Below are positions 1,412-28,535 of a stretch of 32,000 nt of DNA, one piece after another (within the stretch, counting starts at the first letter, position 1; each line of letters opens with the position of its first letter). The notes beneath the pieces are model-generated. The model did no database searches. It worked only from the letters and a program-made list of their open reading frames with translations, and was not told where the DNA came from. The DNA is from an uncultured archaeon (GTDB taxonomy: Archaea; Asgardarchaeota; Thorarchaeia; Thorarchaeales; CAZPUN01), in the NCBI GenBank assembly GCA_964589775.1, contig CAZPUN010000056.1:17533-49532 (forward strand). Reading direction: 5' to 3'. The position numbers and the translations under genes were made by a program.

Positions 1412-3274
1412 TTAAATGTTTTTTAATGCTTTTTTAGTTTCTTCCAGTAGCTCACCATAAAGATTCACGGAAGTAATTAGGGAAGTGTTTAGTGCCTTGT
1501 AATTCCTTTTCAGATAATAAAAAAGACTATTAAACACAAAGAAGCCAACCTTTAAACGAAGACTCTTCAATACGTCATATTCAAGTTCATAGCTGATGTC
1601 CAGAACATTCGAACCAACTTCTGAAATACCAATATGTAGTGCCATCAAGTTCAAATCTATCTCTGCAATTTCAAGTATGATTAATCCATATACATATTTT
1701 TCCTCCTGACTTAAAATATCGATCTCTTTAGAGATACCATAGACCGCCTCCAATAGTTCGGTTATTTCTGAAAGAGACGTGTCAAGCTCCTCAAGATCCG
1801 TATCATAAATCTCATTTAATATACCAGTATGTTTGACTATCCGAAGACCCCATAGCAATATGTTAAGATTCTGAAGATTTCGGTTCTTCACTATCAATTT
1901 CAATTTTTCAACAAATTCGAGTATCAATAATTTGACTTCGTTTGATTCCTTTTTGGATTTCATTGTGCGAATATAAATTTCTAACCCTTGTATCTTTATT
2001 GAGTAGTATGTCGCTTGTGCATCTTTCTCATCCACATAGCCTTTGGCTTTTTCATACAGATACTTTGCATAACTTAAGCTGTTTTCGTCTCCAAAGCTTT
2101 CAAAGACAATCGCAATTTTTTCAAGTACTTCCGGCAAATCATCCAAGTTAGTCTGAACTTTTAAGTCTCGTATGATATCCACCATTGGCATTATTTTATC
2201 GAGTAAATTTATCCTCAAGGATATTGTCGAAATAAGCATTGGAGGTGCTCCTGTAAGTTCATCAAGATGAATTTCCTTCGGCAGCATTCCGGTAAGTTTA
2301 TCAGTCCACTTCTTAATCCATTCAGTTAAAATTTTAATACCCTCTATGAGACTTTCTTCATCGCCAATCTTTGTGAGAGTGACTCCCATTTTCATCTGAA
2401 TATCTTCGCCAGTAGAACTATCTTCACCATAGAGTTCTTTAGCTAAATTTGCCGCAAGTTCGTAATAATGGATTGCCTGCCTCATATTTTCAGGGTCCGG
2501 CGATTTCGCCAAGTATTCTCCTGTTTCGCCATATATGCTTAGTTTTAATTTCTTGCCCTTTTCAGTATTTGGAAGATACTCCATTTGCTCGATTAGGTGC
2601 GTTAGAATTTCTTCAATGCCATCGGTTATATTTTTCTCTTTAATGAGTTGAATGTGCTTAAGGTATAATTCGAACCAGAGCTCAGGAGACTCCTTTACAT
2701 CAAGATATTTTTCAGCTTCTTTTAGAACGCGAATGGATAAACGGGCGTTTCCAATATCTTTCAAATTCGTAGATAAGTTGATCAAACTCTTTATTGCTTC
2801 AATTTTATCAATACTTGCTTCTCCATTCCAGAGAAGATACCAGCCAGATAGTAGTTTTTCCAGTAAATAATCCTGAGTATGTGTCAGCCCATACTGGGCA
2901 CTCAATTTAATGAGTTGTTCCAGTAGATTTACAGATGCTGCGATGGTTTCAAGCTCATCCTTGTCTCTTGGAGGCGGCGTATTCACCATATCAAACGAAT
3001 TACTTATTTTGATGGCTACAAGCTTGGACAAATTAAAATAATCTTCAGAAATGGACACGAACGCATTTAGCAAGTTTGAACTTATCTCGCTTAGTTCTTT
3101 TAAGGTCTTAAGGTCCGAAATAGGTACTTTATGCAGCTCTATGAATTTAATTAGGAGACTACGTGCAGTGCTAATCTTCTTGTTTCGAGTTCTGAATGCC
3201 TTTAGATTTTTATGGAACTCATCTAAATCCAGCTTGTCTTCAAGAAACATAACCATCAGATTTTCTAAACTCAT
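1412..3274 (-). CDS. TPR-like all-alpha helical repeat protein
   Basis: Repeated helical units such as DPENMRQAIHYYELAANLAKELYG, GDEESLIEGIKIL and GDENSLSYAKYLYEKA. No catalytic motif recognised. The ATG lies 1 nt after the stop of the M28 gene. Confidence 0.7.
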   Translation of the reverse strand: MSLENLMVMFLEDKLDLDEFHKNLKAFRTRNKKISTARSLLIKFIELHKVPISDLKTLKELSEISSNLLNAFVSISEDYFNLSKLVAIKISNSFDMVNTPPPRDKDELETIAASVNLLEQLIKLSAQYGLTHTQDYLLEKLLSGWYLLWNGEASIDKIEAIKSLINLSTNLKDIGNARLSIRVLKEAEKYLDVKESPELWFELYLKHIQLIKEKNITDGIEEILTHLIEQMEYLPNTEKGKKLKLSIYGETGEYLAKSPDPENMRQAIHYYELAANLAKELYGEDSSTGEDIQMKMGVTLTKIGDEESLIEGIKILTEWIKKWTDKLTGMLPKEIHLDELTGAPPMLISTISLRINLLDKIMPMVDIIRDLKVQTNLDDLPEVLEKIAIVFESFGDENSLSYAKYLYEKAKGYVDEKDAQATYYSIKIQGLEIYIRTMKSKKESNEVKLLILEFVEKLKLIVKNRNLQNLNILLWGLRIVKHTGILNEIYDTDLEELDTSLSEITELLEAVYGISKEIDILSQEEKYVYGLIILEIAEIDLNLMALHIGISEVGSNVLDISYELEYDVLKSLRLKVGFFVFNSLFYYLKRNYKALNTSLITSVNLYGELLEETKKALKNI

Positions 3275-4511: not shown

Positions 4512-7500
4512 TTAATTGAATAGATCTGATGTGGATACATTGAAGATTTCATCTGATTTTATATCTTTAGTAATGTTATTAGATTCAATACGAATCATAT
4601 TAAGTATTTGATTAATACCCTTATTTTTCAATGAAGATTCATCACGTTTTTCTAATAGAATCTTACGAATTGCATTTTTTACTTCTTCATCAGAAAAAAT
4701 TTCTCGGGCTATTTTCATATTTTTAGATAAATCAAATAATAACATAATAATATTATTGAAAGAGTTTTCTTTTAATATTATTCTAATTGCATTTTTTACT
4801 TCTTCATCATAAAAAATTTCGTATGCTAAGTTTTCATCAATATAACATAAATTAAAATATATTGTGCCAATTATCATTGCTTCTTTCTCAGATTTCAGTA
4901 CAGACTTTATTTCGGATTTATTATTCTCAATAATCTTTCTTGCAAATTCGTTATCGATTTCACTCAAAATAGATAGTAATTTTCCTATAATTTCGCCATT
5001 TTTCTCATTTATTATAAGTTTAATATGATCTATAATATCTCTATCTTGAAGAATTTTACGAGCTAATGTATTATCAATATAACTCAAAATGGATAAGAAA
5101 TTGATTAAAAATCGTTTCATATTTTCAGAGTCATTTAGTATATACTTCTTGCTCTTTTTATATATTTTAACTAATAAATTCTTATTTCTTGTATATACAA
5201 CAGCATTTAGTATATATATAATAGATTGAAACTCAACTTTCTCTAAGTTTAATTCAATACGCTCCATTATATTTTCCAAAATGTTAGGCATATTTTTACC
5301 TAAAATATAGATAGTCTCGCTTACATCATTAATGTTATTATTAGCAATTATATTACAAAGAAATTGAGTAAAACTTGCCAATTCAACTGATTTTCCATAT
5401 TGATGCGTCTTCGTAATAATTTCATTAAAATATGGAATATATTTTATACTTACTCTAGGATCATTATCTAAATAATTTTCTATAACAATTTTTACAAGTT
5501 CTTCTAAACTAAACAACGATTTTAAATCATTTATTCTATCAAAATATTCGGGTTCGGTACAATCAATTAGTCTAAGATAAGTCATGGCAATTTTTGGATG
5601 TGATATAGATATCAATCTTTCACTATTTCTTTTTTTATAAGATAAATTCAAATACCTCTCAGAAAATTCAGCATATTTTATTAAATTTTCAATGGGTTTT
5701 TCAAAGTCCATTATTTCGAAATCTTTGGATTTTAGCTGCTTTAATAAAAAGTCATATGTAATTGGAATTTTATATTGTGAAAAATATGAGACAACGGCAA
5801 TTGGTGCATAATATTCATACAACTTGTCATTGATATCCGGATCTATTTTTTCAAGATATTTTTGGATTGCAGTACATAGTGGAGCATCAAAAACTTTTGG
5901 ATCATTACTTCTAAGATAGTTATGAATATAAAAGCTCATTATTGTTAAATTATATTCTTTACTATCAATTTTATATTTAATTTTCAATTTTTTAAGAATT
6001 TTAGACAATATATCATAGTAATTTTGTTCTACATGTAATTCATATTTGTTGAGTACTGATTTATCTAAAGATCCCTTTTTTTGCCCATAGGTTGATCCAT
6101 CTAAGCGATTATTCACTAGTCTATTATTTAACTTTTCAAAATAACTTAAACTCTCCTTGCGCAATAAATAAATGCTGTAAATCAATTTATTTGATATAAC
6201 ATTTTTAATAAAATCATCAATTTTTTCAATTGGAATTAATTGAATGTCATCAATAAAAATGACAAATTCAAAATATTTCCATTTTAAGATTTGGGTTATT
6301 TTCATAAATTCATCAAATTTAGATCTTATATCCGATGCACGGTATAGAAATACAGGAATACCCTCTAGCCATTTTTCAAACACTAATTTCAGTGCAAGAG
6401 TTGTTTTTCCACTTCCAGACTCTCCTATGATAAATAACGGTTTGTGTTCATTGATTTTATTTTTTACATTAGGATAGTCATACGAATCTACTACATAACC
6501 ATCGGCAAAATCTACAGGTGTTGGAAATACTCTCATAATCTTTGATTCAAGTTCTAATGCCCAAGTTTGCTCATTTAGAGGATATCGAGGCAACATGTAT
6601 TTTAGTAAATCATTTTCAAGATATTTTGTTAATATTTCAAAAGACTTTTCTATAAAAATTTCATAATTTGCAATAATTGATACAGTCATTTCATATTCAT
6701 TGGAATATACCTCTTTTAAACGTTTAATTCTATTGAGGTAAAAGCTCACAAAATATGGATTCTTCAACAGTCCCAAATTTGAACCAATTTTATATTCTTT
6801 TAGCAAACGATTTTTGAATTCATTATCTTGGTTTTCAATAAAGGAATATAAATCCTTAGTGTTATTATCAATAAAATCAAACATAACTATGAATGGCACA
6901 AAATTCTTTTTGATCTCATTTGGACCCTCACGGGATATCACAATTAATTTTATTTTCCCATCTTTGGCAAAATCTATTAGCTTTCCAAAACCCCAAAGGG
7001 AATACAACTTTAAATATGATAGATTCTTAGCATCTAGAAATACCACTGCATCCTTTATTTCGTCTATATTATAAATTGTCTGTTCATTCTCTTTATTATA
7101 TATTTCAATGAATTTGTCTGTTGGATTCGTTACTTTTTCAAAATCGTCAGGTTCAAAAAAGAAATAGACCTTTTGGGGATACTTTTTATGAACCTCTTTC
7201 AGTTCATCATTAAATTTATCAGAATTTTTCAGAACGAGAAATGCTTTGAAGGCTGCAAAAGACTTTCCAGAGAGCGGTGGGCCAGACATCCATATAAAAT
7301 TATATCGTTTAATAAGATCAATCAAGTTCGCAACATTATCATTTTCAATCAGTTCTTCCTGAGATGGAAATCTAATATGATTACTATAATATTTAATTAA
7401 TTCTTGCTTAGTTTTTATTCTAAGAACATCTGAAACTTCACTTATATTTGTATTTATTTTCGAGATATTTCGGTTAATATCCTCAATTTGCTCTTTGACT

Positions 7501-7958
7501 TCATTTAGGCTTTTATTCAGATTACTAAATACAACATCAATTTCAAATTTGATGGCCCTAATTTCCTTCGACTCCGATTTAGAAACAACTTCAGAAATGA
7601 TTTCCTTTATTGTCGATTGAAATTCTCCACTTTTGAAATATTCTGCAAATGATTTTTCATGAAATATTACATCATAAATTTTATCGGATATTATTGTTGA
7701 ACCTACATTATTAGAGAACCATTCTACAATATTATCAACGTAACGTAGAGGGTCATCAGATTTAGAAAGTTTCTTTATTGATTCTAGGATAGAGTCTGGA
7801 ATAATGTATGTGAAGAATGGTAAGCTTGTAGGATTCATCAAAATAAAGCCAACAGCAATAAGTCCTTTTATTATTTTTTTACCTTCTGATTTTATAGTTT
7901 TTATACTTTTAGAGAATATGCCCTTAAAAATAGATTTTATTGATTTTAGATTCACCAT
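4512..7958 (-). CDS. Large tandem double P-loop (STAND-like) NTPase with C-terminal helical repeats, paralog A
   Basis: First domain: Walker A GPPLSGKS (~7260-7283), Walker B VVFLDAK, ISR sensor-like motif. Second domain: Walker A GESGSGKTT (~6399-6426), Walker B FVIFIDDIQ. N-terminal coiled coil and C-terminal ~39-aa repeats. GAGGG RBS upstream. Very AT-rich. Confidence 0.85.
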   Translation of the reverse strand: MVNLKSIKSIFKGIFSKSIKTIKSEGKKIIKGLIAVGFILMNPTSLPFFTYIIPDSILESIKKLSKSDDPLRYVDNIVEWFSNNVGSTIISDKIYDVIFHEKSFAEYFKSGEFQSTIKEIISEVVSKSESKEIRAIKFEIDVVFSNLNKSLNEVKEQIEDINRNISKINTNISEVSDVLRIKTKQELIKYYSNHIRFPSQEELIENDNVANLIDLIKRYNFIWMSGPPLSGKSFAAFKAFLVLKNSDKFNDELKEVHKKYPQKVYFFFEPDDFEKVTNPTDKFIEIYNKENEQTIYNIDEIKDAVVFLDAKNLSYLKLYSLWGFGKLIDFAKDGKIKLIVISREGPNEIKKNFVPFIVMFDFIDNNTKDLYSFIENQDNEFKNRLLKEYKIGSNLGLLKNPYFVSFYLNRIKRLKEVYSNEYEMTVSIIANYEIFIEKSFEILTKYLENDLLKYMLPRYPLNEQTWALELESKIMRVFPTPVDFADGYVVDSYDYPNVKNKINEHKPLFIIGESGSGKTTLALKLVFEKWLEGIPVFLYRASDIRSKFDEFMKITQILKWKYFEFVIFIDDIQLIPIEKIDDFIKNVISNKLIYSIYLLRKESLSYFEKLNNRLVNNRLDGSTYGQKKGSLDKSVLNKYELHVEQNYYDILSKILKKLKIKYKIDSKEYNLTIMSFYIHNYLRSNDPKVFDAPLCTAIQKYLEKIDPDINDKLYEYYAPIAVVSYFSQYKIPITYDFLLKQLKSKDFEIMDFEKPIENLIKYAEFSERYLNLSYKKRNSERLISISHPKIAMTYLRLIDCTEPEYFDRINDLKSLFSLEELVKIVIENYLDNDPRVSIKYIPYFNEIITKTHQYGKSVELASFTQFLCNIIANNNINDVSETIYILGKNMPNILENIMERIELNLEKVEFQSIIYILNAVVYTRNKNLLVKIYKKSKKYILNDSENMKRFLINFLSILSYIDNTLARKILQDRDIIDHIKLIINEKNGEIIGKLLSILSEIDNEFARKIIENNKSEIKSVLKSEKEAMIIGTIYFNLCYIDENLAYEIFYDEEVKNAIRIILKENSFNNIIMLLFDLSKNMKIAREIFSDEEVKNAIRKILLEKRDESSLKNKGINQILNMIRIESNNITKDIKSDEIFNVSTSDLFN
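4668..4820. repeat. Intragenic direct repeat of 36 nt (4668-4703 and 4785-4820, 35/36 identical, period 117 nt)
   Basis: aattgcattttttacttcttcatca(g/t)aaaaaatttc occurs twice and encodes EIF(Y/S)DEEVKNAI in consecutive helical repeats. Confidence 0.9.
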
Positions 7959-8065
7959 GAAGCCCTCATTATGCGTTTATAAAATATAATAAAATTCAAC
8001 TATGATATAAGTTTTATTCAAAAAATTCCAAATAGTTCAAAAAATAAGAAAAATGAAATAAATCT

Positions 8066-9317: not shown

Positions 9318-11225
9318 TTGAAAATAAAAGAAGAGGATGTTGAAAAGGTAATAAAACCGATTCCGCCTTCATTATTGCCCGGACCTATTGCGAAATTCAC
9401 TGTTTATGCAATTATTATTGATGGCAACCATGTCTATACCGGGTCATCTGCAGGCTCAATTAAAGTTTGGGAAAAGAATAGCTGGAGGCTAATTCGATCA
9501 ATATATGCCCATGAATCTGAAATTATTATTACACTCGCTTTAGACGATAAATATCTGTACTCTGCCGCTCTGGACGGCACTGTTAAGGTGTGGGATAAAA
9601 AAACACTCCAATTAATCTCAACGCTGAAACATTCTACAAGTGTATGGGCTGTGGCGGTGGATGATGAAAGTGTTTACGTTGGCACAGATGAAAATACTGT
9701 AACAGTCTGGAAAAAAGAAAGATGGATACATGCTACGAGCCTCTACGGTCTTCGCTTGGGAGCAAATTCAATTGCTCTTGATGATGACCACATTTACGCT
9801 GGATCCAACGATGGAAGCGTATTTGTGTGGGATAAAAAAGATGGAGAGATCGTTAAAATCTTAAAACATACAGATATTGTCAAGAAAGTCGTCGTAGACG
9901 AAAAATATGTTTATGCTTCTGCTATGAATGGTACCGTAATAATCTGGAAAAAAGATAAGTGGAAGAAGAAAGCTGTACTAGAAGCTCATAAGGGGTCTGT
10001 GGAAGCACTCGGAATTGATGAGAACTATATCTATACCGCGGGTAGTGATACTCAAGTAAAAGTCTGGAAAAAAGACAAATGGAAGGAAGTAGTAGCTCTA
10101 TCAGGACATACTGAACCAATCTATTCAATTGCAGTGGACGATAATTTTGTGTATTCAGGCTCGAGCGATAATTCTATTCGCATTTGGGAGAAAAACACAT
10201 GGAAGGAACTTGTCAGCGTAGAGGGGCATTCCCAACCAATTTACGATATCGCACTAGATGAATCATTCATTTATACGGGATCTTCGGACAAAACAATTAG
10301 AATTTGGGATAAATCCCATTTCAATCAACAAGCTATCCTGCAAGATGTAAATTGCATTTGTGCAATCGCAGTTGATTCTGATACGATTTATACTGGCTCA
10401 GAACATGGAAATATACGAATATGGAACAAAAAGGCACTAAGAAGCAAAGAGAACATCCAAGGACATATGGACGAAGTGATGGATGTCACAGTTGATGAGA
10501 AGTATATCTATTCGGCTTCCAAGGATACAACTATCAAAATTTGGGATAAAAGAACATTATCTGAAATTAAAATGATCAATGCCCACAAATATACCGTGAG
10601 AAAACTTGCTCTAGATGAGCATTACGTGTATTCCTGCTCTGATGATGGATTCGTTAAGGTATGGGAAAAAGAAACGTGGAACCAGATTTACGTAATGGAA
10701 CATAAAGATAAAGTAATCGACATTACAGAAGATGATGAATACATATATGTAGCATCAGAAGATAACATCTATGTATGGGAAAAAGGTTCATGGAAAATGA
10801 TCCATACCATAAAATGTTCAGGAAACGTCCGGGCTGTGCATATAGATGGTAAATTTCTTATTGCTATTGTTGATAACTACATCACTGCATGGAACAAAAA
10901 ATCAGGCGAGAACGTAATAAAAATTCCGTGTAAGTTTGGTTATCCATTAAATATCATAAGCGATGAGAAATACCTTTATGCAACAACTACACTAGGCAAC
11001 ATTAAAGCTATTCCGAAATGGATTCTTACGGGAAATCAATATGAACTTCAAGAGTTTCTAAAAGAACAAGCAGATATTTACAAGAATCTAAAATGTCGAA
11101 ACTATATTGATTCCTATTGGTACAAGTGGTATAGAACATTATGCGAATTCTTAAGAAAGGAGATTAAATGTGAAGAAATACAAAATTTGCTGCAGGAATG
11201 CCTTGAAAAAAGAATGTACGGATAA
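9318..11225 (+). CDS. WD40 repeat protein (~14 repeats, probable double beta-propeller) with short C-terminal helical domain
   Basis: Regular ~40-aa repeats of the form (G/A)H...V..h.hDD.YhYSGS.D..hKhW(D/E/K)K. TTG start preceded by GAGGT. Confidence 0.95.
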   Translation: MKIKEEDVEKVIKPIPPSLLPGPIAKFTVYAIIIDGNHVYTGSSAGSIKVWEKNSWRLIRSIYAHESEIIITLALDDKYLYSAALDGTVKVWDKKTLQLISTLKHSTSVWAVAVDDESVYVGTDENTVTVWKKERWIHATSLYGLRLGANSIALDDDHIYAGSNDGSVFVWDKKDGEIVKILKHTDIVKKVVVDEKYVYASAMNGTVIIWKKDKWKKKAVLEAHKGSVEALGIDENYIYTAGSDTQVKVWKKDKWKEVVALSGHTEPIYSIAVDDNFVYSGSSDNSIRIWEKNTWKELVSVEGHSQPIYDIALDESFIYTGSSDKTIRIWDKSHFNQQAILQDVNCICAIAVDSDTIYTGSEHGNIRIWNKKALRSKENIQGHMDEVMDVTVDEKYIYSASKDTTIKIWDKRTLSEIKMINAHKYTVRKLALDEHYVYSCSDDGFVKVWEKETWNQIYVMEHKDKVIDITEDDEYIYVASEDNIYVWEKGSWKMIHTIKCSGNVRAVHIDGKFLIAIVDNYITAWNKKSGENVIKIPCKFGYPLNIISDEKYLYATTTLGNIKAIPKWILTGNQYELQEFLKEQADIYKNLKCRNYIDSYWYKWYRTLCEFLRKEIKCEEIQNLLQECLEKRMYG

Positions 11226-11960
11226 TTAATTCATAGTTTTAGCATAATTTCTTAAGAATTCTTCAAATTCCTTAATAGGTCTGACTCTGGAAACGAATTG
11301 GTGAAAATCATCTTTAGTTCCATAATTTTTTATATACGATTTTACAAGATCACGATATTTTTTAGGGTCTGTGACAAAAGTGATATCAATAACGTGATGC
11401 AATATGTATCTATTTTTATCGCTTTTTAATTCACTATCTTTATCAGTAGTTATAAATATCACTATGAATTTTTGATTTTTTTTCGTTTTTTCTAATTCTC
11501 GTTTCCAAAATGCAGTTTCTGTTAATCTTTCGCGTAAGCTAGTTTTACAGGAAATAATTGCGTTTATGATTTGAGTCTTTTTATCAATAAGAAGTATATC
11601 TACATCTGGATAAATAATGTCCCAATTTTCAATAGCAATTTGATTTTTATATTTATTTAGATCAATATTAATTAATACATCAATTTTATTTTGTAATTGG
11701 TTTTTTATTATTATTTGCATAATATATTTAAACACTGCATATTCATACAAAGCCCCTTTGCAGGATTTCCACGCCTGATCTCTACTTCTTTCTTTGTCAT
11801 AATAGTTATTGAGCAGGGCTCTTAATTTATCTTCAGAAATAATATTAAAAGTCTCAATTGCCTTTAAGTAATCTCCATTATGTTCGCTTTCAACTATTTT
11901 ATCATAATGATTTTTCAGGAGCTCATAAATTATTCTTTTACATTTATGTCCTTGGGACAT
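11226..11960 (-). CDS. Type II restriction endonuclease, BsaWI-like (CCGG family, PD-(D/E)XK)
   Basis: PDVD...ISCKTSLRER signature of the CCGG-family enzymes, plus N-terminal QAWKSCKGALYE. Lies directly downstream of a DNA methyltransferase. Confidence 0.85.
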   Translation of the reverse strand: MSQGHKCKRIIYELLKNHYDKIVESEHNGDYLKAIETFNIISEDKLRALLNNYYDKERSRDQAWKSCKGALYEYAVFKYIMQIIIKNQLQNKIDVLINIDLNKYKNQIAIENWDIIYPDVDILLIDKKTQIINAIISCKTSLRERLTETAFWKRELEKTKKNQKFIVIFITTDKDSELKSDKNRYILHHVIDITFVTDPKKYRDLVKSYIKNYGTKDDFHQFVSRVRPIKEFEEFLRNYAKTMN

Positions 11961-11966
11961 TTTATA

Positions 11967-12794
11967 TCACTCATTCAATAGTTTTAATTGATAGATATTT
12001 CCTTCATTTATGATCCGATTCTTAGCAATTTCACAATATTTTTTATCGATTTCAACACCGATTCCTTTTCTATTTAACATAGCACATGCTACAAGCGTTG
12101 TACAGCTTCCAGCAAATGGATCAAGAATTGTATCACCGACAAAACTAAATAATTTAATACATCTTTTTGGAAGTTCTACGGGAAATGGTGCGGGATGCCC
12201 TACTCTTTTTTTGCTTTCACCAGAGAATGTCCAAACACCACGAGTCCATTCCATGAATTCATCTCGCGTGATATCTGAAACGCCATTATTTAATTTCTTC
12301 CATACTTCTTTGTAAAAAACGACAATAACTTCTACTGGTGCAATTACATACGGAGCTTTTGCACTGAGCCACGAACCCCACGCAGTTCTTCTTGAGATAT
12401 TACCTTCATTCCAAATAATTGTCGAGAAGTATTTCCAACCAACTTCCTTTGCAATTCTTACAACATCAGCGTAAACACTCTGAAATCCAGCTCCTTTTCG
12501 CCCTTTACTTTTGTCTAACGGTATATTTAAACAGAAGCGACCGTCCGGTTTCGCTAGCTCTAATGCTTTTGATAGCCATTTCTCAGTAAACTCGAGATAT
12601 TTTTCATATGGCAGGTCATCTTTAAACGAATTGTAATGTATATCTACATTATATGGTGGCGAGGTGATTATTAAATCTATAGAGTTTTTAGGTATCAAGT
12701 TCGTTGTTAGAAAATCATCATTTATGATAATGAGATTATCTTTCCAATTAAAATAAATACCATTATTTACTTCATTCATTTTAAGATCATCCAT
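11967..12794 (-). CDS. Beta-class N4-cytosine (N4/N6) DNA methyltransferase, cognate to the adjacent REase
   Basis: Motif IV TSPPY precedes motif I DPFAGSCTT, with HPAPFP between them. The IIWNEGNISRRTAWGSWLSAKAPY block recalls CCGG-type m4C MTases such as H. pylori HP0263 (recognised from memory). Confidence 0.93.
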   Translation of the reverse strand: MDDLKMNEVNNGIYFNWKDNLIIINDDFLTTNLIPKNSIDLIITSPPYNVDIHYNSFKDDLPYEKYLEFTEKWLSKALELAKPDGRFCLNIPLDKSKGRKGAGFQSVYADVVRIAKEVGWKYFSTIIWNEGNISRRTAWGSWLSAKAPYVIAPVEVIVVFYKEVWKKLNNGVSDITRDEFMEWTRGVWTFSGESKKRVGHPAPFPVELPKRCIKLFSFVGDTILDPFAGSCTTLVACAMLNRKGIGVEIDKKYCEIAKNRIINEGNIYQLKLLNE

Positions 12795-15312: not shown

Positions 15313-18300
15313 TCATGAAGATACGAATGCTGCAACCTCAGGATCAATCTCATGAATTTTTGATATTAGAATCGCAGTTTCCTTACTTTTTGGATTCTCT
15401 AAAATTTTTTGCCGCAGAATTTCCTTTATTTTTCGATTATTTATGAGTTTTCGAGTTAGATATGGATTATAAAATCTTGCAAATTCGTAAAGATAGATAA
15501 TTTCCGAGATATTCGAGTTCTTCAGAATAATAGAGAATTGGTTTAGCTTGTACTTTATGAATCGCGTATTGAAAACATAATTCAATCGAAAACCAATGAA
15601 TAATTCAATCAATGTATCAAGGGGCGTATTCCCATCGATCATCTTCAATATGAATTTAATTGTTTGACGATTAACGGCTATGAAATTTTTGGGAGCAGAT
15701 ATACTCGCAATATAAATAAAGTAAGATAATGCCGTAATTATATTCTTATTCGGATATTTATATCTAATAAATTTCAAAAAAAAGATATATGACCTAACAG
15801 CATTTAAGAAATATCTACTACGAAAATCAGTATTTGCCAAATGGACAAGATATTCATAGGATTTTGCAGGCTCGTTTATGATTTTTTCATAAATGAAATA
15901 ACAATAGTTAAATGAAAGTCTATCAATAATTTTCTTCAGCTTTTCTATATTCGGAATATCAAAATAGTTCAAACTATGAAGGTATGTCTCTGCAAGTTTG
16001 GATTCTTGTATTGTGAGATACTTCAAACCATTGCCTTTATCAATTAAGTGCAATTCATTCAATTTTACCAATTGCAATATGATGTTAGTAGCACTCTCAA
16101 ATCCGTTTGTTTCCAAGACATATTCCACATAGTCCCAAAGCACTGGAGTTTTACGTTTAGCAAATTCAGCAACTATGGCAAGCACAACAATTATTTCATT
16201 TACACTTTTAATATTTCCAGCATTCATAACTAGTTTTAAATGCTCATAGACAATTTTATGGGGCTCAAATTTGAATACCTCAGTATTTTGATTTTGCAAA
16301 TAATGTTCCAAGTAAATTTTTGCGAGACTGAGATTATTTGAAATTGATTTTGTAAATGAATCAATATACGCATCAGGAATTTCTAAATGTTCAATTAGAT
16401 GCTCTGCAATTTTATCTATACAAACTTCTTGCGATATTTCCACAATCTTACCAAGATCAATCGGATAGGATTCCCATGCTAGTTTCAATAACTTGAACGT
16501 TATAAAATATCGCTTTTGATTTTTAATCACGTACTTATACACATCCTGAAGAGCTTTCCAAGCCTTTTTTGTCATAGTTAGAATCGCATAATGATTTCCC
16601 TGTTTTATTGCCATAATGAGTCTAAACAGATCCATTGTAGGGATTAGATGAATATCGTCTACAAACAGAGATACACGTATCGATAACCAATTTGATAATT
16701 GCAAAAGCTCTACAATTTCTTTGACTTCTTCATGTTTATCTGATGGCTGATATATGAATGTAAAATTTCCTTGTGCCCATTTTTCAAGTATGAGCCTTGC
16801 TGCAAGTGTAGTTTTACCCGTTCCGGAATCACCTACTATGAACAATAAGTTATTTTGCTCAAATTCTCGCTGAAATTGAATATAGTCGTCGGTTTCAAAA
16901 ATTCTACCTTTTGCATAATCAATCGGAGTGGGAAACACTCTCAGGTATTCGGGTTCTGATTCGCTGAGCCATGTTTCATTGTTCGATTGAAAATTATCAA
17001 TTGATATTTTATTAATTATGGCTTTAACATTAGAGTGTTCAAACATGGTGCCAATAAATGGATTAGAACTCTTGAGAAACTTTCCATAGGCACTTAATAT
17101 AGAGAGTTCTTTGGATTTGAGATCATTTTGGATTATCGCTCGTACGCGATTTAAGTAATACTTTGTGAAAAAGCCATTTTTAAGAAGCCCGAAGAATTTC
17201 GCTAGTTCATATTGCTCCGAGAGCTTTTGCTTTTTGTATTCATCCTTAACCTTCTTAAGAAAGGTCTGAAACATAATCGAGCTGTATTCAATGTAATTGT
17301 TGTCCAAAAAGTATGTAATTGGGTATTCATGGTGCGCATCTGGATATTGTTGTGATAGAATAATTAGACGAATCTTTCCATCGTTCGCAAGCATTACCAA
17401 ATCTGCTAATTCACTATTTAAAATATCTTTTAATGTTAAATTCTTACCATCTATAAAAACAATCGCATTTTCTATTTCATTAATTTGTTCTATTTTATTG
17501 CTATTTAAGGAATTGTAGGTTATGATAAAATCATTTAATGGGTCCCATATTTTTGATGACGTATTTGGCTCCAAAAAGTAATAAACGTAGTTTTCAAAAG
17601 ATAGATAACCAGTCTTACGCATCATGTAAAATAATTGGACGCCTGTAAAAGTTTTACCGCAAAGAGGAGTACCATAGATCCAAACGAAATTTTGCTTTTC
17701 AACAAGATACATAATCTTACTAATATTATGAATTAAATTGGGACCCTTAATAGTATCATTTTCGATAATGAGATCTTCAGAGTCTGGAATACGCAGATGA
17801 GCAGACATATATTCATTGTTCTTAAGATATTCTTGAATCTTAGAATACTCGTACGTTTCCTTTAACACATTATGAATTTCGCATACATTCTTTTTTACAC
17901 GATTTATTGTCTTTATGACTTCTTTGATGGAACTATCCATTATTGATTCAAGATCATTTGATGTCAGTTTGCGATTTTCAAATATGTTTATCAAAATTTT
18001 CTTGATTTCGAACAAATCGCTATCAACAAGATTAGATATGTAGTCCATAGTGTTTATGGTAAGGTCTAATAGAATTATTTCAGTCCTGACATTACAACAC
18101 TGATTTTCTTCAATGGGGTCATCGCATTTACAATCTGAAAGAGCAGCAAGTGCAAATTCAAATTTGGAGGTAATAACGGATTCATGAACATCATTCAAAA
18201 ACAAGATTCCAAGACAAAGTGAGATTTTCGAGAAGTATTCAATTCTTTCATTTATAAACTCGAAATCAAAATTATTTAGCCATTCATTCACAAGGTTCCT

Positions 18301-18336
18301 AAAAGTACCGAGAGACACGGGGTCCTGCAAATTCAT
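15313..18336 (-). CDS. Large tandem double P-loop (STAND-like) NTPase, paralog B
   Basis: First domain: Walker A GTPLCGKT (~17650-17673), Walker B AIVFIDGK. Second domain: RVFPTPIDY leader, Walker A GDSGTGKTT (~16807-16833), Walker B LFVDDIH. Colinear with 4512..7958. GAGGT RBS upstream. Confidence 0.85.
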   Translation of the reverse strand: MNLQDPVSLGTFRNLVNEWLNNFDFEFINERIEYFSKISLCLGILFLNDVHESVITSKFEFALAALSDCKCDDPIEENQCCNVRTEIILLDLTINTMDYISNLVDSDLFEIKKILINIFENRKLTSNDLESIMDSSIKEVIKTINRVKKNVCEIHNVLKETYEYSKIQEYLKNNEYMSAHLRIPDSEDLIIENDTIKGPNLIHNISKIMYLVEKQNFVWIYGTPLCGKTFTGVQLFYMMRKTGYLSFENYVYYFLEPNTSSKIWDPLNDFIITYNSLNSNKIEQINEIENAIVFIDGKNLTLKDILNSELADLVMLANDGKIRLIILSQQYPDAHHEYPITYFLDNNYIEYSSIMFQTFLKKVKDEYKKQKLSEQYELAKFFGLLKNGFFTKYYLNRVRAIIQNDLKSKELSILSAYGKFLKSSNPFIGTMFEHSNVKAIINKISIDNFQSNNETWLSESEPEYLRVFPTPIDYAKGRIFETDDYIQFQREFEQNNLLFIVGDSGTGKTTLAARLILEKWAQGNFTFIYQPSDKHEEVKEIVELLQLSNWLSIRVSLFVDDIHLIPTMDLFRLIMAIKQGNHYAILTMTKKAWKALQDVYKYVIKNQKRYFITFKLLKLAWESYPIDLGKIVEISQEVCIDKIAEHLIEHLEIPDAYIDSFTKSISNNLSLAKIYLEHYLQNQNTEVFKFEPHKIVYEHLKLVMNAGNIKSVNEIIVVLAIVAEFAKRKTPVLWDYVEYVLETNGFESATNIILQLVKLNELHLIDKGNGLKYLTIQESKLAETYLHSLNYFDIPNIEKLKKIIDRLSFNYCYFIYEKIINEPAKSYEYLVHLANTDFRSRYFLNAVRSYIFFLKFIRYKYPNKNIITALSYFIYIASISAPKNFIAVNRQTIKFILKMIDGNTPLDTLIELFIGFRLNYVFNTRFIKYKLNQFSIILKNSNISEIIYLYEFARFYNPYLTRKLINNRKIKEILRQKILENPKSKETAILISKIHEIDPEVAAFVSS

Positions 18337-18544
18337 TGGAAGACCTCATAAATAGAAGTTTTGCCAAATCTAATTAGATTGTTTTTTAAGTTTTGTGCAT
18401 TTTGATTTAGTTTGATCGCATAATAATGAAAACAACACAATAATTCTTCAGAATTTTGATAATTTAGACTTTTGACATAAGTTTCGCCTGAACATGTATT
18501 AAATATGAAAAAATACATTAATCCGTTTGACAATTTTAATCAAT

Positions 18545-19702: not shown

Positions 19703-21013
19703 TTATATTCCGAGCATTATTGTAATAAACAAATATATACTCGATACGGTCATGTAGATAAAGCCCATTGCAACACCAGCTTTTGCCCATTCCTTAAATG
19801 TAATCGTGGCTCCAGCTCGTTTTGCCATGTTAAATGCGATTATGGTGCTAGGACTGCCAAAGTGAGTGAAGACTGCACCCAAATTCGCTGCAAGAATCAA
19901 TGCTCGCCAATATGAGAATGCTGAAAATCCAGTCTGAGCAATCAAATCTTCGATGACTGGAACCATCATTGTGGCAAGCGTTATATCATCTACGATGGAA
20001 GAAGTTATTCCCATGATCCAGAGGGTAGAAATGACTGAGAAGACTTCATTTCCACTGGCAAGTGAAACAAGAATATCCGCCAATATAGAGAGAGCTCCAA
20101 CATGTATCAATCCTTCGACCATTACGAATAGGCCCATGAAGAAGAATATACTCGCCCATTCTACCTTATGAAGCACATGTTCAGGGTCTACACCACTGAG
20201 TACAAGCATAAGAATTGCTCCGACAATGGACACTGCATCCAAATAAGGTATTGTCACAAATCCAATTATGATGAGTGTAAATAGAATCGTAGTGCGATAA
20301 AACAATGATTTATCGGTGACTACTGAGCTCTCATCAAAGAGCATAATCCGTTTTAGGTTCTCTTCCTTGATTTCACCAAGACTATTACGATATAAGAATG
20401 CCAGATAACCAGCGGTAATCGCAATCATAACGAAGCCGATAGGGGCAAACATTACAAAGTAATCTGAAAACGTGAGATTTGCAGCCTCTCCAACCAACAA
20501 GTTGGGAACAGCACTGACCAATAATGGAATTCCACCAGCTTTTGTAGCTACGGCTTCAGACACCAGAAACGGCACAGGGTCCAAATCAAGAGACCTGCAG
20601 GTGGTTAATGTCAAGACACCAATGATCAACAGAGCCGTAATATTCTCGAGTAGACTGGATAATACAGCAGTAAGCACCGTGAACATCATGAGCAATTTCA
20701 TTGGCGAACTCGCAAATGCCTTCACAGCTTTAATCGTAATATATTGGAATAGTCCCGAAGTTTTTACAACTTCTACAGTTATCATCATACCCAGTATAAC
20801 TGCAATAACGGATAGGTCGATCCACGGACTTGCCTCTCCTACACCTATAATTACGTCAAATGTCAGCCCATCAGTGATCGCAAGATACATGAACATCAAA
20901 GCAGCTCCTGAAAGAGCAGCCACAGTTTTATGAATTGTTTCAGTCGCTATGAGTATGATTGACATAGTAAATATTAATACCGTTATTATAACCTGTGCCG
21001 TCATTTTTATCAC
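19703..21013 (-). CDS. ArsB/NhaD (IT superfamily, P-protein/SLC13-like) transporter, copy 1
   Basis: Multi-TM protein with ILGMMITV...SGLFQY, LSSLLENIT, VEWASIFFFMGLFVMVEGL and ITFKEW. Confidence 0.88.
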   Translation of the reverse strand: MIKMTAQVIITVLIFTMSIILIATETIHKTVAALSGAALMFMYLAITDGLTFDVIIGVGEASPWIDLSVIAVILGMMITVEVVKTSGLFQYITIKAVKAFASSPMKLLMMFTVLTAVLSSLLENITALLIIGVLTLTTCRSLDLDPVPFLVSEAVATKAGGIPLLVSAVPNLLVGEAANLTFSDYFVMFAPIGFVMIAITAGYLAFLYRNSLGEIKEENLKRIMLFDESSVVTDKSLFYRTTILFTLIIIGFVTIPYLDAVSIVGAILMLVLSGVDPEHVLHKVEWASIFFFMGLFVMVEGLIHVGALSILADILVSLASGNEVFSVISTLWIMGITSSIVDDITLATMMVPVIEDLIAQTGFSAFSYWRALILAANLGAVFTHFGSPSTIIAFNMAKRAGATITFKEWAKAGVAMGFIYMTVSSIYLFITIMLGI

Positions 21014-21138
21014 GCCCCTTCGACCTTTTTTTTAATAATAGCCTAATTTCAACTGAGTAGAGTTCATATACTCGAAATATTGAACAAAATTATTGCTTCT
21101 TGCTTATAATAAGAAAATATATTAAAAAATATTATGAA

Positions 21139-22437
21139 TTAGCCAAGCATTATCAAAATAGCAACGTATATACTCGAAATTACAAGGTAAATTATACCCA
21201 TAGATATTCCCGCACGTGCCCATTCCTTGAATGAAATCGGAGTTCCTGCTCGCTCCGCCATACCGAATGCTACAATCGTACTCGGGCTGCCGAATGTGGT
21301 AAATACCGCACCAAGATTTGTACCAAGTATTAAAGCGGTCCAGAAGGGCATTGAGGAGAATCCTGTTTGTATGATCATATCATTAATTACAGGAACCATC
21401 ATAGTCGCAAGAGCAATGTCATTAATTATGGATGAGGTCACACCTACAATCCAAAGTGTTGAAATTACAGAAAGCATTTGGTTTCCTCTACCGATCATAA
21501 TCATTAATTCTGCGAGTAGTTCAAGAGCACCGGAATAGATCAATCCCTCAACCATTATAAACAAACCAATGAAGAAGAAAATACTATCCCATTCGATCTT
21601 TTTAAGGACATGCTCGGGTTCTGAACCACTTAAAATTATCATCATAATGGCACCGATTATCGCTACGGCGTCTAATTGCGGTATAGTTACAAAGCCAATG
21701 ATAATGACTACAAACAAAATGGATGTTCTATAGAACAATTTCTTATCTGCAACAACAGAACTTTCATCAAAGAGCATAATCCGTTTTAGATTCTCTTCCT
21801 TGATTTCGCCGAGCTTTCCTTTATAGATGAAACTCAGATATAATGCAGTTATGAAAATCATAAAGAAACCAATGGGTGCAAATTGAATAAAATATTCAGC
21901 AAACGTGAGATTTGCTGCCTTGCCCACAAGCAGGTTTGCTACTGCACTGACCAATAATGGAATACCGCCAGCCTTAGTAGCAATAGCTTCAGACACCAGA
22001 AACGGCACAGGGTTCAGGTCTAGTGAGCGGCATGTCGTTAGTGTAAGAACACCTATGATTAATAATGCAGTAATATTCTCAAGAAGACTAGATAAAATTG
22101 CGGTCAGCACCGTGAACATCATGAGCAATTTCATCGGCGAACTCGCAAATGCTTTCACAGCTTTAATCGTAATATATTGAAAGAGTCCGGATGTCTTAAC
22201 AACTTCTACGGTAATCATCATTCCAAGGATAACCGTGATAACAGACATATCGATCCATGGACTGCTTTCACCAACACCTAATATCTGTTCAAAAGAAATA
22301 CCCTCAGTCTGGGCGAGATATATAAACATTAAAGATGCTCCGCCTAGTGATGCGATGGTCTTATTAACTAGTTCGGTTGCTATTAGTAATATTGAGACTC
22401 CAAAGATCAATACGACAATTAATATTTCGGCGGACAT
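21139..22437 (-). CDS. ArsB/NhaD (IT superfamily) transporter, copy 2 (tandem paralog)
   Basis: Same motifs as copy 1 and colinear with it. Several near-identical DNA blocks at offset 1433. Confidence 0.88.
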   Translation of the reverse strand: MSAEILIVVLIFGVSILLIATELVNKTIASLGGASLMFIYLAQTEGISFEQILGVGESSPWIDMSVITVILGMMITVEVVKTSGLFQYITIKAVKAFASSPMKLLMMFTVLTAILSSLLENITALLIIGVLTLTTCRSLDLNPVPFLVSEAIATKAGGIPLLVSAVANLLVGKAANLTFAEYFIQFAPIGFFMIFITALYLSFIYKGKLGEIKEENLKRIMLFDESSVVADKKLFYRTSILFVVIIIGFVTIPQLDAVAIIGAIMMIILSGSEPEHVLKKIEWDSIFFFIGLFIMVEGLIYSGALELLAELMIMIGRGNQMLSVISTLWIVGVTSSIINDIALATMMVPVINDMIIQTGFSSMPFWTALILGTNLGAVFTTFGSPSTIVAFGMAERAGTPISFKEWARAGISMGIIYLVISSIYVAILIMLG

Positions 22438-26981: not shown

Positions 26982-28535
26982 TTATTTTTCATCAACTATT
27001 TCGGGCACGTTTTTAATGTCCAAGTCGGGAATTACAGTTGGGAAAGCGATGACTTCCTTCAGTGAGATTTCGTCTGCGAGAACCATTGCTACTCGTTCGA
27101 TTCCGTATCCGAGTCCTCCAGTGGGCGGCATGCCGTATTCGAGCGAACGTATGAAATCTTTGTCCATTGGCATGTATTCGAGTTCTTCTTTACCCTTAAC
27201 TTTCGATAATTTCTTACGTAGTTCTTCTTCTTCCTTAAACCGCTTATACTGTTCGATTGGGTCGTTCAACTCGGTATAAGCATTACAGAATTCCATACCT
27301 GCGAGGAATCCTTCGAATCGCTCTACGAACCCGGGCAGGTCCGGAGACTCTTTTGCAAGTGGAGTTATATCTTTTGGATAATGTGTGATGAAAGTAGGCT
27401 GGACGATATGAGGCAATACAAATTTATCGAATAGCTCTTCGAGGATCTTTCCCTTACGTTCTTCATCAATTCCGTTTTCCAAAGCAACTTTTCGTAATTC
27501 TTCATCTGATAGAGACAACACGTCGATTCCGGAATACTCCTTAATCGCATCGACCATTCGTATGCGTTTCCAAGGAGGTCTGAAGTTAATTTCCTTACCT
27601 TGATATGTGATCGTATCCTTACCAAAGATCTCCTTGACCATTTCATAGGTCATATTCTCAGTAAGTTCCATAATATCATTAAAGTCTGCATACGCCCAGT
27701 ATAGTTCAATTTGAGTGAATTCCGGATTATGAGTGGCATCAACATCCTCGTTTCTAAAACATTTCGAGAACTCAAATACGCGTTCGATACCACCAACAAT
27801 TAATCGTTTCAAATATAGTTCGGGTGAAATTCTCAGATACATATCGATGTCCAAATAGTGGTGATGTGTTTTGAATGGTCTTGCAAATGCTCCGCCGTAT
27901 ATGGGCTGCAAAGTTGGAGTAATAACCTCAAGGAATTTTCGCTCCACGAGAAATCTCTTTGCTACTTCCAGCATCTTTCCAACTATATACATATTCATGC
28001 GAGCCTTGGGATTCATAATAAAGTCGAGATAACGTTGCTTGTATCGCTTCTCAATATCCTTTAACCCGAACCATTCACTGGGCAATGGCCTTAAATTCTT
28101 AGCTAAGACATAAAATTCCTCAACCCAGATGGATAGTTCGCCCTTATGAGTTCGAAATATATGACCTTTGACTCCCAAGATATCGCCTACGTTTACTCGC
28201 TTTTTGTAAATCTTGTACAAATCTGGACCTAACGTATCATGCTTGAAATATAGCTGGATCTTGCCAGAAACATCCTCAATGTGTGCGAAACCAGCCTTTC
28301 CATGCACACGTTTGGACCTGACTCTTCCCGCTACTGAAACTTTCTTATCTTCTAAATTTTCTCCAGTTTCAAGATATTCGTATTCCTTAATCACAAGCTC
28401 AATATCGGTTTTCTCAAACTTTCTAATTTTAAAGGGGTCCATGCCCTTTTCTTGCAGGTCCCTGAGCTCTCTATATCTGTCCTTTATGACAACAGTCTCT
28501 GGGGGACCAGTCCGGTTCTGCTGTGTGGGAGTCAT
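26982..28535 (-). CDS. lysS: Lysine--tRNA ligase, class II
   Basis: OB-fold (VAGRVRSKRVHGKAGF), QRYLDF, YGGAFARPFKTHH, YLRISPELYLKRL, motif 2 FRNED...HNPEFT, NAYTELNDP and motif 3 YGMPPTGGLGYGIERVAM. Confidence 0.98.
   Translation of the reverse strand: MTPTQQNRTGPPETVVIKDRYRELRDLQEKGMDPFKIRKFEKTDIELVIKEYEYLETGENLEDKKVSVAGRVRSKRVHGKAGFAHIEDVSGKIQLYFKHDTLGPDLYKIYKKRVNVGDILGVKGHIFRTHKGELSIWVEEFYVLAKNLRPLPSEWFGLKDIEKRYKQRYLDFIMNPKARMNMYIVGKMLEVAKRFLVERKFLEVITPTLQPIYGGAFARPFKTHHHYLDIDMYLRISPELYLKRLIVGGIERVFEFSKCFRNEDVDATHNPEFTQIELYWAYADFNDIMELTENMTYEMVKEIFGKDTITYQGKEINFRPPWKRIRMVDAIKEYSGIDVLSLSDEELRKVALENGIDEERKGKILEELFDKFVLPHIVQPTFITHYPKDITPLAKESPDLPGFVERFEGFLAGMEFCNAYTELNDPIEQYKRFKEEEELRKKLSKVKGKEELEYMPMDKDFIRSLEYGMPPTGGLGYGIERVAMVLADEISLKEVIAFPTVIPDLDIKNVPEIVDEK

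Follow-up and report, generated by a model that had tools for sequence, protein, structure and literature searches.

We describe a gene, here called gene A, and its paralog, gene B, in a 32,000-nt stretch of DNA (the window in the following) from an uncultured archaeon of the order Thorarchaeales, Asgardarchaeota (assembly GCA_964589775.1, contig CAZPUN010000056.1, positions 17,533 to 49,532). Both encode proteins with two P-loop nucleotide-binding units, unit 1 and unit 2, on a single chain. This layout was found in only three Asgard lineages; as far as the searchable literature shows, it has not previously been described in archaea. With a probability of roughly 0.55, we read protein A as a one-protein antiviral STAND sensor of the Avs/NLR type, from an Asgard family not yet described, in which the C-terminal repeats would sense, unit 2 would switch, and unit 1, an extra truncated P-loop module, would serve as a second assembly or threshold module. 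The observed part of this proposal comprises the domain order, the fold and family of unit 2, the conservation of the sites, and the recurrence in three lineages.

An initial annotation, made from the letters of the window, had proposed for gene A the order helical N-terminus with coiled coil, P-loop 1, P-loop 2, winged helix, and C-terminal repeats. All its motifs sit where it placed them in both units, and the order is borne out by the open reading frame (ORF), the motifs, an AlphaFold model and repeat statistics (Table 1). Likewise, the motifs, the fold of unit 2 and the repeats support a STAND/NLR layout with two P-loop units. Statements on the fold of either unit are based on a model covering residues 186-830; a single-sequence AlphaFold model of full-length A (predicted local distance difference test, pLDDT, 38) was judged unusable as a whole. 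Gene A is also present in two further assemblies, with one allele changed at residue 292, and the contigs of the sequencing run contained no trustworthy joint skipping it.

Table 1. Positions of the tandem-NTPase genes, their domains and associated features. Coordinates refer to the window unless a contig is named.
Feature	Position	Strand	Remarks
Gene A, tandem-NTPase STAND protein	4512..7958	minus	1148 aa; one intact ORF
Cationic amphipathic N-terminal helix of A	7854..7958	minus	residues 1-35; net charge +8
Helical N-terminal domain of A	7404..7853	minus	ends in coiled coil (about residues 143-180)
Unit 1 nucleotide-binding domain of A	6924..7379	minus	residues 194-345; motifs, model, alignment
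Helical region after unit 1 of A	6549..6923	minus	residues 346-470; probable helical domain 1 (HD1), then linker
Unit 2 nucleotide-binding domain of A	6039..6548	minus	residues 471-640; Pfam, model, motifs
HD1 and winged-helix domain of unit 2 of A	5559..6038	minus	residues 641-800; with His787 of the family
C-terminal helical sensor of A	4512..5558	minus	clearest repeats 4644-5123 (residues 946-1105)
Type II restriction-modification pair	11226..12794	minus	BsaWI-like nuclease, N4/N6 methylase; 3.3 kb from A, 2.5 kb from B
Gene B, paralog	15313..18336	minus	1007 aa; both units; also in JGI contig L075
Baldrarchaeota tandem STAND	L010:10001-13864, L042:10001-14122, L076:227-4489		unrelated 450-aa N-terminus, weak DUF4350 match

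Unit 2 combines the features expected of a STAND NTPase: an ASCE P-loop nucleotide-binding domain (NBD) with Walker A and B motifs, a basic sensor-1, HD1 and a winged-helix domain (WHD), a repeat sensor, and a variable N-terminal region. In A, its leader lies at residue 475, Walker A at residues 512-520 (6399-6425) and Walker B at residues 567-573 (6240-6260) with D570 and D571; strand 4 ends in the basic sensor-1 residue R600, which corresponds to Lys in B and to Arg in the tandem proteins of Baldrarchaeota and of a further Asgard genome, G373. The unit was modelled confidently with five strands, a helical domain and a winged helix. The pLDDT of the HD1 and winged-helix region is mostly 77-90, helped by the alignment used, and structural matches spanning this region include Avs5, ORC, NRC2, and MalT. 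Compared with the single-NTPase family of the same order, unit 2 gives a 99.4% profile match over 193 columns. The Pfam model nSTAND3 (PF20720) scores above its gathering cut-off (33.3 and 54.5 bits versus 27.2), matching two stretches in A and also two in B, and the NACHT profile remains below its own (15 and 19 bits versus 26.7). Canonical nSTAND3 proteins form a separate clade in the tree.

The best structural match to unit 2 is Avs5, i.e., AVAST type 5 (PaAvs5 9nc9, EfAvs5 9jap), whose nucleotide-binding oligomerization domain (NOD) is annotated as nSTAND3. Avs5 shares with A the order effector, NOD, helical sensor, and its function is compatible with a non-canonical Walker B or with ATP binding without hydrolysis. 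It differs in having one NTPase and a SIR2 effector, where A and B carry two P-loop units. An N-terminal SIR2 effector was not found in A and B, the Avs models of PADLOC gave no match, and no NCBIfam family came near its cut-off for either gene. EfAvs5 binds ATP without hydrolysing it (PMC11897194), PaAvs5-1 functions with one acid in Walker B (10.1101/2025.07.08.663546), and Walker B reads Asp-Asn in 10 of 13 single-NTPase relatives; hydrolysis by unit 2 can thus not be taken as established. These relatives also weaken the division into one regulatory and one catalytic module that the initial annotation had drawn from Walker B, since the same 10 lack the second acid too; its view of unit 1 as degenerate stands.

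In unit 1 of A, the leader lies at residue 194 and Walker A at residues 226-233 (7260-7283). Walker B (residues 305-311, 7026-7046) has D309 followed by Ala and Lys, with no second acid, and strand 4 (residues 339-344, 6927-6944) contains R343. In the model, its four strands are of parallel type and follow the ASCE order, at a pLDDT of mostly 66-82. Residues 347-468 are helical at low confidence (pLDDT 32-50); in an alignment with unit 1 of the Baldrarchaeota and G373 proteins, an Asn-Pro motif at residues 400-401 resembles the HD1 motif of NACHT and NB-ARC proteins. About 65 aa separate this motif from unit 2, and neither a WHD motif nor a hairpin was recognised there in the model (pLDDT below 50). 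In unit 1, all four tandem proteins retain Gly-Lys-Ser/Thr, a Leu as the fourth P-loop residue, and the first Asp of Walker B. None has an acid directly after that Asp, as the initial annotation had reported for the two paralogs; an Asp follows two places later in Baldrarchaeota and G373. The sensor-1 Arg is kept in A only and replaced by Gln, Ser and Asp in the other three, in a register set by hand. Better signs of degeneration than Walker B are this lost Arg (3 of 4) and the lack of a recognisable winged helix. To judge from sequence, unit 1 is nevertheless maintained, because A and B share 32% identity in it and 29% in unit 2.

Unit 1 likely, though not provably, belongs to STAND. Its nearest ESM feature neighbours, taken alone, are NACHT, nSTAND3 and NPHP3_N clusters at 0.94-0.97, and nSTAND3 matches it weakly in A (E 0.012); in Baldrarchaeota the match exceeds the cut-off and spans most of the model. 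A small GTPase, considered because two short proteins of this genome have a Walker A resembling that of unit 1, is contradicted by the modelled strand order. Unit 1 and unit 2 predicted together as a complex scored 0.02, which weighs neither way. That the two units make up a known double-ring or two-domain ATPase (KaiC, Cdc48/NSF, Clp, ABC) is barely credible: NSF, p97 and ClpA do occur among the Foldseek matches of the whole model, but with TM scores of about 0.2 and a root-mean-square deviation of about 20 Å, and in A a winged helix and repeats follow unit 2, setting it apart from Cdc48, NSF and Clp. For the KaiC model the score was 15 bits, where 408 would be required. The initial annotation had named a match to KaiC, Cdc48, ABC or a described defence protein as grounds for rejection; none was found.

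Proteins A and B, the sole copies in the genome, are 27% identical over 693 aa (E 3e-71) and have both units in common. The N-terminus of B is different (acidic, with a Cys cluster and no amphipathic helix), and its C-terminus is shorter. A profile search of 1.84 billion representatives revealed a single further tandem protein, P0005, whose alleles measure 1287-1414 aa and whose cluster contains a Candidatus Baldrarchaeota protein. Genome G373, of a different Asgard class, adds the third lineage. A chance origin is excluded, since two P-loops occur at matching positions in two paralogs and two other lineages. Among 400 Asgard genomes, many of them incomplete, the unit-1 profile had true matches in two; its matches in G099 and G141 are McrB-like. 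Multi-stretch matches P0003, P0004, P0008, and P0009 proved to be repeated helicase or kinase-like P-loops and no relatives. Word-based homolog searches returned near-identical proteins only, pattern scans of genomic and viral contigs no further relatives, and a metagenome scan recovered paralog B and one Baldrarchaeota copy.

The G373 copy (L043:6527-9130, minus strand) is broken by four or more frameshifts, most of which fall at homopolymer runs. Its neighbourhood comprises, among others, genes for a nucleotidyltransferase and a HepT-like RNase, together with a MoxR-like and a vWA-like gene in convergent orientation. The Baldrarchaeota sensors contain 3, 5 or 6 near-identical repeats of 39-41 aa that vary at few positions of one helix, a copy number to which assembly artefacts may contribute; this variation resembles the pattern of fast-evolving NLR sensors. 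Two Baldrarchaeota alleles show many codon differences throughout the gene, as against one and two codons in the two upstream genes. Other STAND and CHAT genes in the region differ between the two contigs.

Single-NTPase Asgard STANDs (e.g., L047, L048, L049, L018, P0006) share unit 2, the leader, the winged-helix His and the variable termini. They differ in having no unit 1, in the nuclease effectors of several members, and in a Walker B that is mostly Asp-Asn. The family as collected (L047-L057, L017, L018, L020, P0006, with tandem paralogs in L056), itself not yet described, has N-termini of HNH, Mrr-like, membrane or helical type, and its sensors consist of WD40, TPR, LRR or helical units. 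A related STAND family (L068-L073, genomes G379-G381) starts almost at the NTPase, with no N-terminal effector. In another Asgard genome, a caspase-like domain is fused to a canonical nSTAND3 NTPase (L045:3-2456, minus strand).

At the C-terminus of A, four repeat units of 37-43 aa cover residues 946-1105, and 5 of 6 pairs reach p<=0.003 against shuffles; the DNA shows a 56-nt repeat at 117-nt spacing with 84% identity. These repeats are real and do not match those of Baldrarchaeota. The N-terminal helix of A has a hydrophobic moment of 0.63, within the top 3% of 769 N-termini in the genome, and a moderately hydrophobic stretch starts at residue 29 (KD19 maximum 1.43). No Pfam family matched residues 1-35, and the N-terminus of A did not match those of single-NTPase relatives. 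The N-terminal domain gave weak, coiled-coil-type Pfam matches only and is helical in the low-confidence model. Clustered N-terminal helices act on membranes in plant CC-NLRs and MLKL; by this analogy, the amphipathic helix is a candidate membrane-acting effector that could work once clustered.

Unit 1 could itself make up all or part of the effector, as an enzyme that consumes NTP and is activated by oligomerisation of unit 2. It occupies the place of the HNH or Mrr-like nucleases of single-NTPase relatives, no other effector was recognised in A and B, and the second Asp in Baldrarchaeota and G373 would suit an enzyme. However, A and B lack a second acid nearby, and every tandem protein has a further variable N-terminal region before unit 1. 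We regard this as rather improbable.

For the one-protein sensor we propose the following sequence of events. As in known STANDs, the C-terminal repeats of resting A would keep unit 2 (NBD-HD1-WHD) in a closed state around its nucleotide, and a viral protein bound to the repeats would open unit 2 for assembly into an oligomer, either a ring or an Avs5-like filament. In the most speculative step, unit 1 would bind Mg-NTP, probably without a normal switch cycle, and contribute, through its covalent link, a second module for assembly or for setting a threshold; the single chain would then correspond in cis to an active-plus-inactive STAND pair. Again by comparison with known STANDs, the clustered N-terminal effectors, in A probably the amphipathic helix on the membrane, would stop the infected cell.

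Several points weigh against this proposal. The STAND class of unit 1 is suggested by motifs, strand order and language-model features; profile comparison does not separate it from other ASCE families, and no row of the fold searches on the model singled out unit 1. The nSTAND3 model is promiscuous, being above cut-off in 7 of 14 control genomes, and independent tandem sequences number only four. The Pfam scan found no recognised effector domain in A and B, and the direct neighbours of A are housekeeping peptidases. ORC/Cdc6 and clamp loaders lie within 1-2 Z units of Avs5, and 198 of 589 STAND clades were classed as defensive, many others being not defensive (PMC13581612). A signalling STAND outside defence or an ORC/Cdc6-like regulator is nonetheless unlikely: no C-terminal DNA-binding output domain was detected, and the nuclease effectors of the family, the hypervariable repeats of homologs, the patchy distribution and the frameshifted G373 copy speak against it. 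The defence role, raised as a possibility in the initial annotation, is considered likely.

Pairs of active and degenerate STANDs are known from conflict systems, namely nSTAND2 two-gene and iSTAND ternary systems (PMC8195603, PMC7159879). There the genes are separate and the inactive copy is eroded and effector-bearing, whereas here both units share one chain and the P-loop of unit 1 is kept. Inactive STANDs were proposed as nucleic-acid receptors (PMC8195603), and the MoxR-like and vWA-like pair adjoining the G373 copy corresponds to iSTAND partners (PMC7159879). Unit 1 might accordingly be a second sensor, a nucleic acid or nucleotide receptor in a two-input gate, yet its Walker A is intact where iSTANDs have eroded NTP-binding motifs, the iSTAND Pfam match is weak and below cut-off (E 0.008), and the annotated genes around A, B and the Baldrarchaeota gene include no MoxR-vWA pair. 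A and B thus show neither the eroded motifs nor the operon of iSTANDs, and we consider a second sensor improbable.

The origin of unit 1 was examined separately. An internal duplication, suggested in the initial annotation, is not supported: BLAST gives no alignment between the halves (best E 3.8), and profile comparison of the units gives 94% over 63 columns of the Walker A region only. McrB (96%), ABC (93%) and RadB-like (91%) controls score comparably, so unit 1 is no nearer to unit 2 than they are. The shared leader (hydrophobic-Arg-x-Pro), taken as a sign of duplication, also precedes the NTPase of single-NTPase relatives. In a tree of 82 hand-anchored columns with long branches, unit-1 sequences cluster (support 88/75 under a mixture model, 96/91 under LG), and unit-2 sequences cluster with single-NTPase proteins (88/90); the unit 2 sequences of tandem proteins fall outside the clade formed by the single-NTPase members of this order (98/95). 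Duplication within the lineage of the window is rejected (approximately unbiased, AU, test, p 0.018), an ancient duplication is not (p 0.12). Both a fusion of a separate P-loop and an ancient duplication followed by fast change are compatible with these results. Unit 1 of Baldrarchaeota and G373 is clearly homologous (E 4e-11). Beyond Walker A, unit 1 of A and B is not significantly similar to it (E about 0.01 within one genome), and two separate captures are therefore possible.

The long branches, and the 12 non-synonymous to 3 synonymous differences in unit 1 of two Baldrarchaeota alleles (9 to 8 in unit 2; small numbers), would also fit a decaying passenger without a role. Since A and B conserve unit 1 no less than unit 2, and the P-loop of unit 1 is intact in three lineages, we give this little credence.

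The genome measures 2.16 Mb, is 97% complete, and was assembled from reads of a hydrothermal vent metagenome. Profilin and a Sec23/24 trunk protein are among its products, and it belongs to an Asgard archaeon; a class of 87 genomes in one order and two families would fit Thorarchaeia. Gene A has 26% GC, the fourth-lowest among 313 long ORFs (mean 36.2%, standard deviation 3.6). The proximity of the restriction-modification pair to both genes is a single modest observation: with six such methylases above cut-off in the genome, a position within 5 kb of one would be expected by chance in about 3% of cases. Between A and this pair, a stand-alone 635-aa WD40 double propeller (9318-11225, plus strand) might act as a partner sensor. 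A 620-aa protein (1412-3274, minus), encoded on the same strand as A and two genes downstream, has only weak Sel1/TPR matches and no PADLOC match. Upstream of the starts of A and B (7959-7970 and 18337-18350), similar bases include a GAGG element resembling a ribosome site. The window further contains two tandem paralogous ArsB/NhaD-type transporter genes (19703-22437) and, in an archaeon, a class II (bacterial/eukaryotic-type) lysyl-tRNA synthetase above NCBIfam cut-off (26982-28535, minus strand).

A description of prokaryotic tandem STANDs was not found in the searchable literature, where one search was swamped by unrelated papers. A few two-domain STAND proteins do exist, as 659 domains in 656 seed proteins imply (PMC13581612). 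SAMD9 (9zjr) differs in its effector and sensor domains and has one NTPase. The wheat protein WTN1 is likewise an NLR with two nucleotide-binding modules, and it assembles into an active oligomer. It is a plant NB-ARC/LRR helper activated by a tandem kinase, and the resemblance would be convergent at most. A survey of Asgard defence (PMC11291487) covers NACHT-type NLRs, with no mention of Avs or AVAST. Asgard immune inventories are probably incomplete, because the PADLOC Avs models miss a STAND family with nuclease effectors and diversifying repeats.

Tentatively, and with more doubt than conviction, the tandem proteins may represent an ancient Asgard NLR-like class with two sites per chain that predates the split of at least three Asgard classes; unit 1, lacking a winged helix, would then provide a second oligomer tier or a nucleotide-set threshold, and the common single-NTPase Asgard receptors may have arisen from this class when unit 1 was lost. 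STAND/NLR receptors almost always have one nucleotide switch per chain, so a second P-loop is a natural test of threshold or assembly tuning. Here, the tandem site occurs in the archaea closest to eukaryotes, in parallel to WTN1 in plants.
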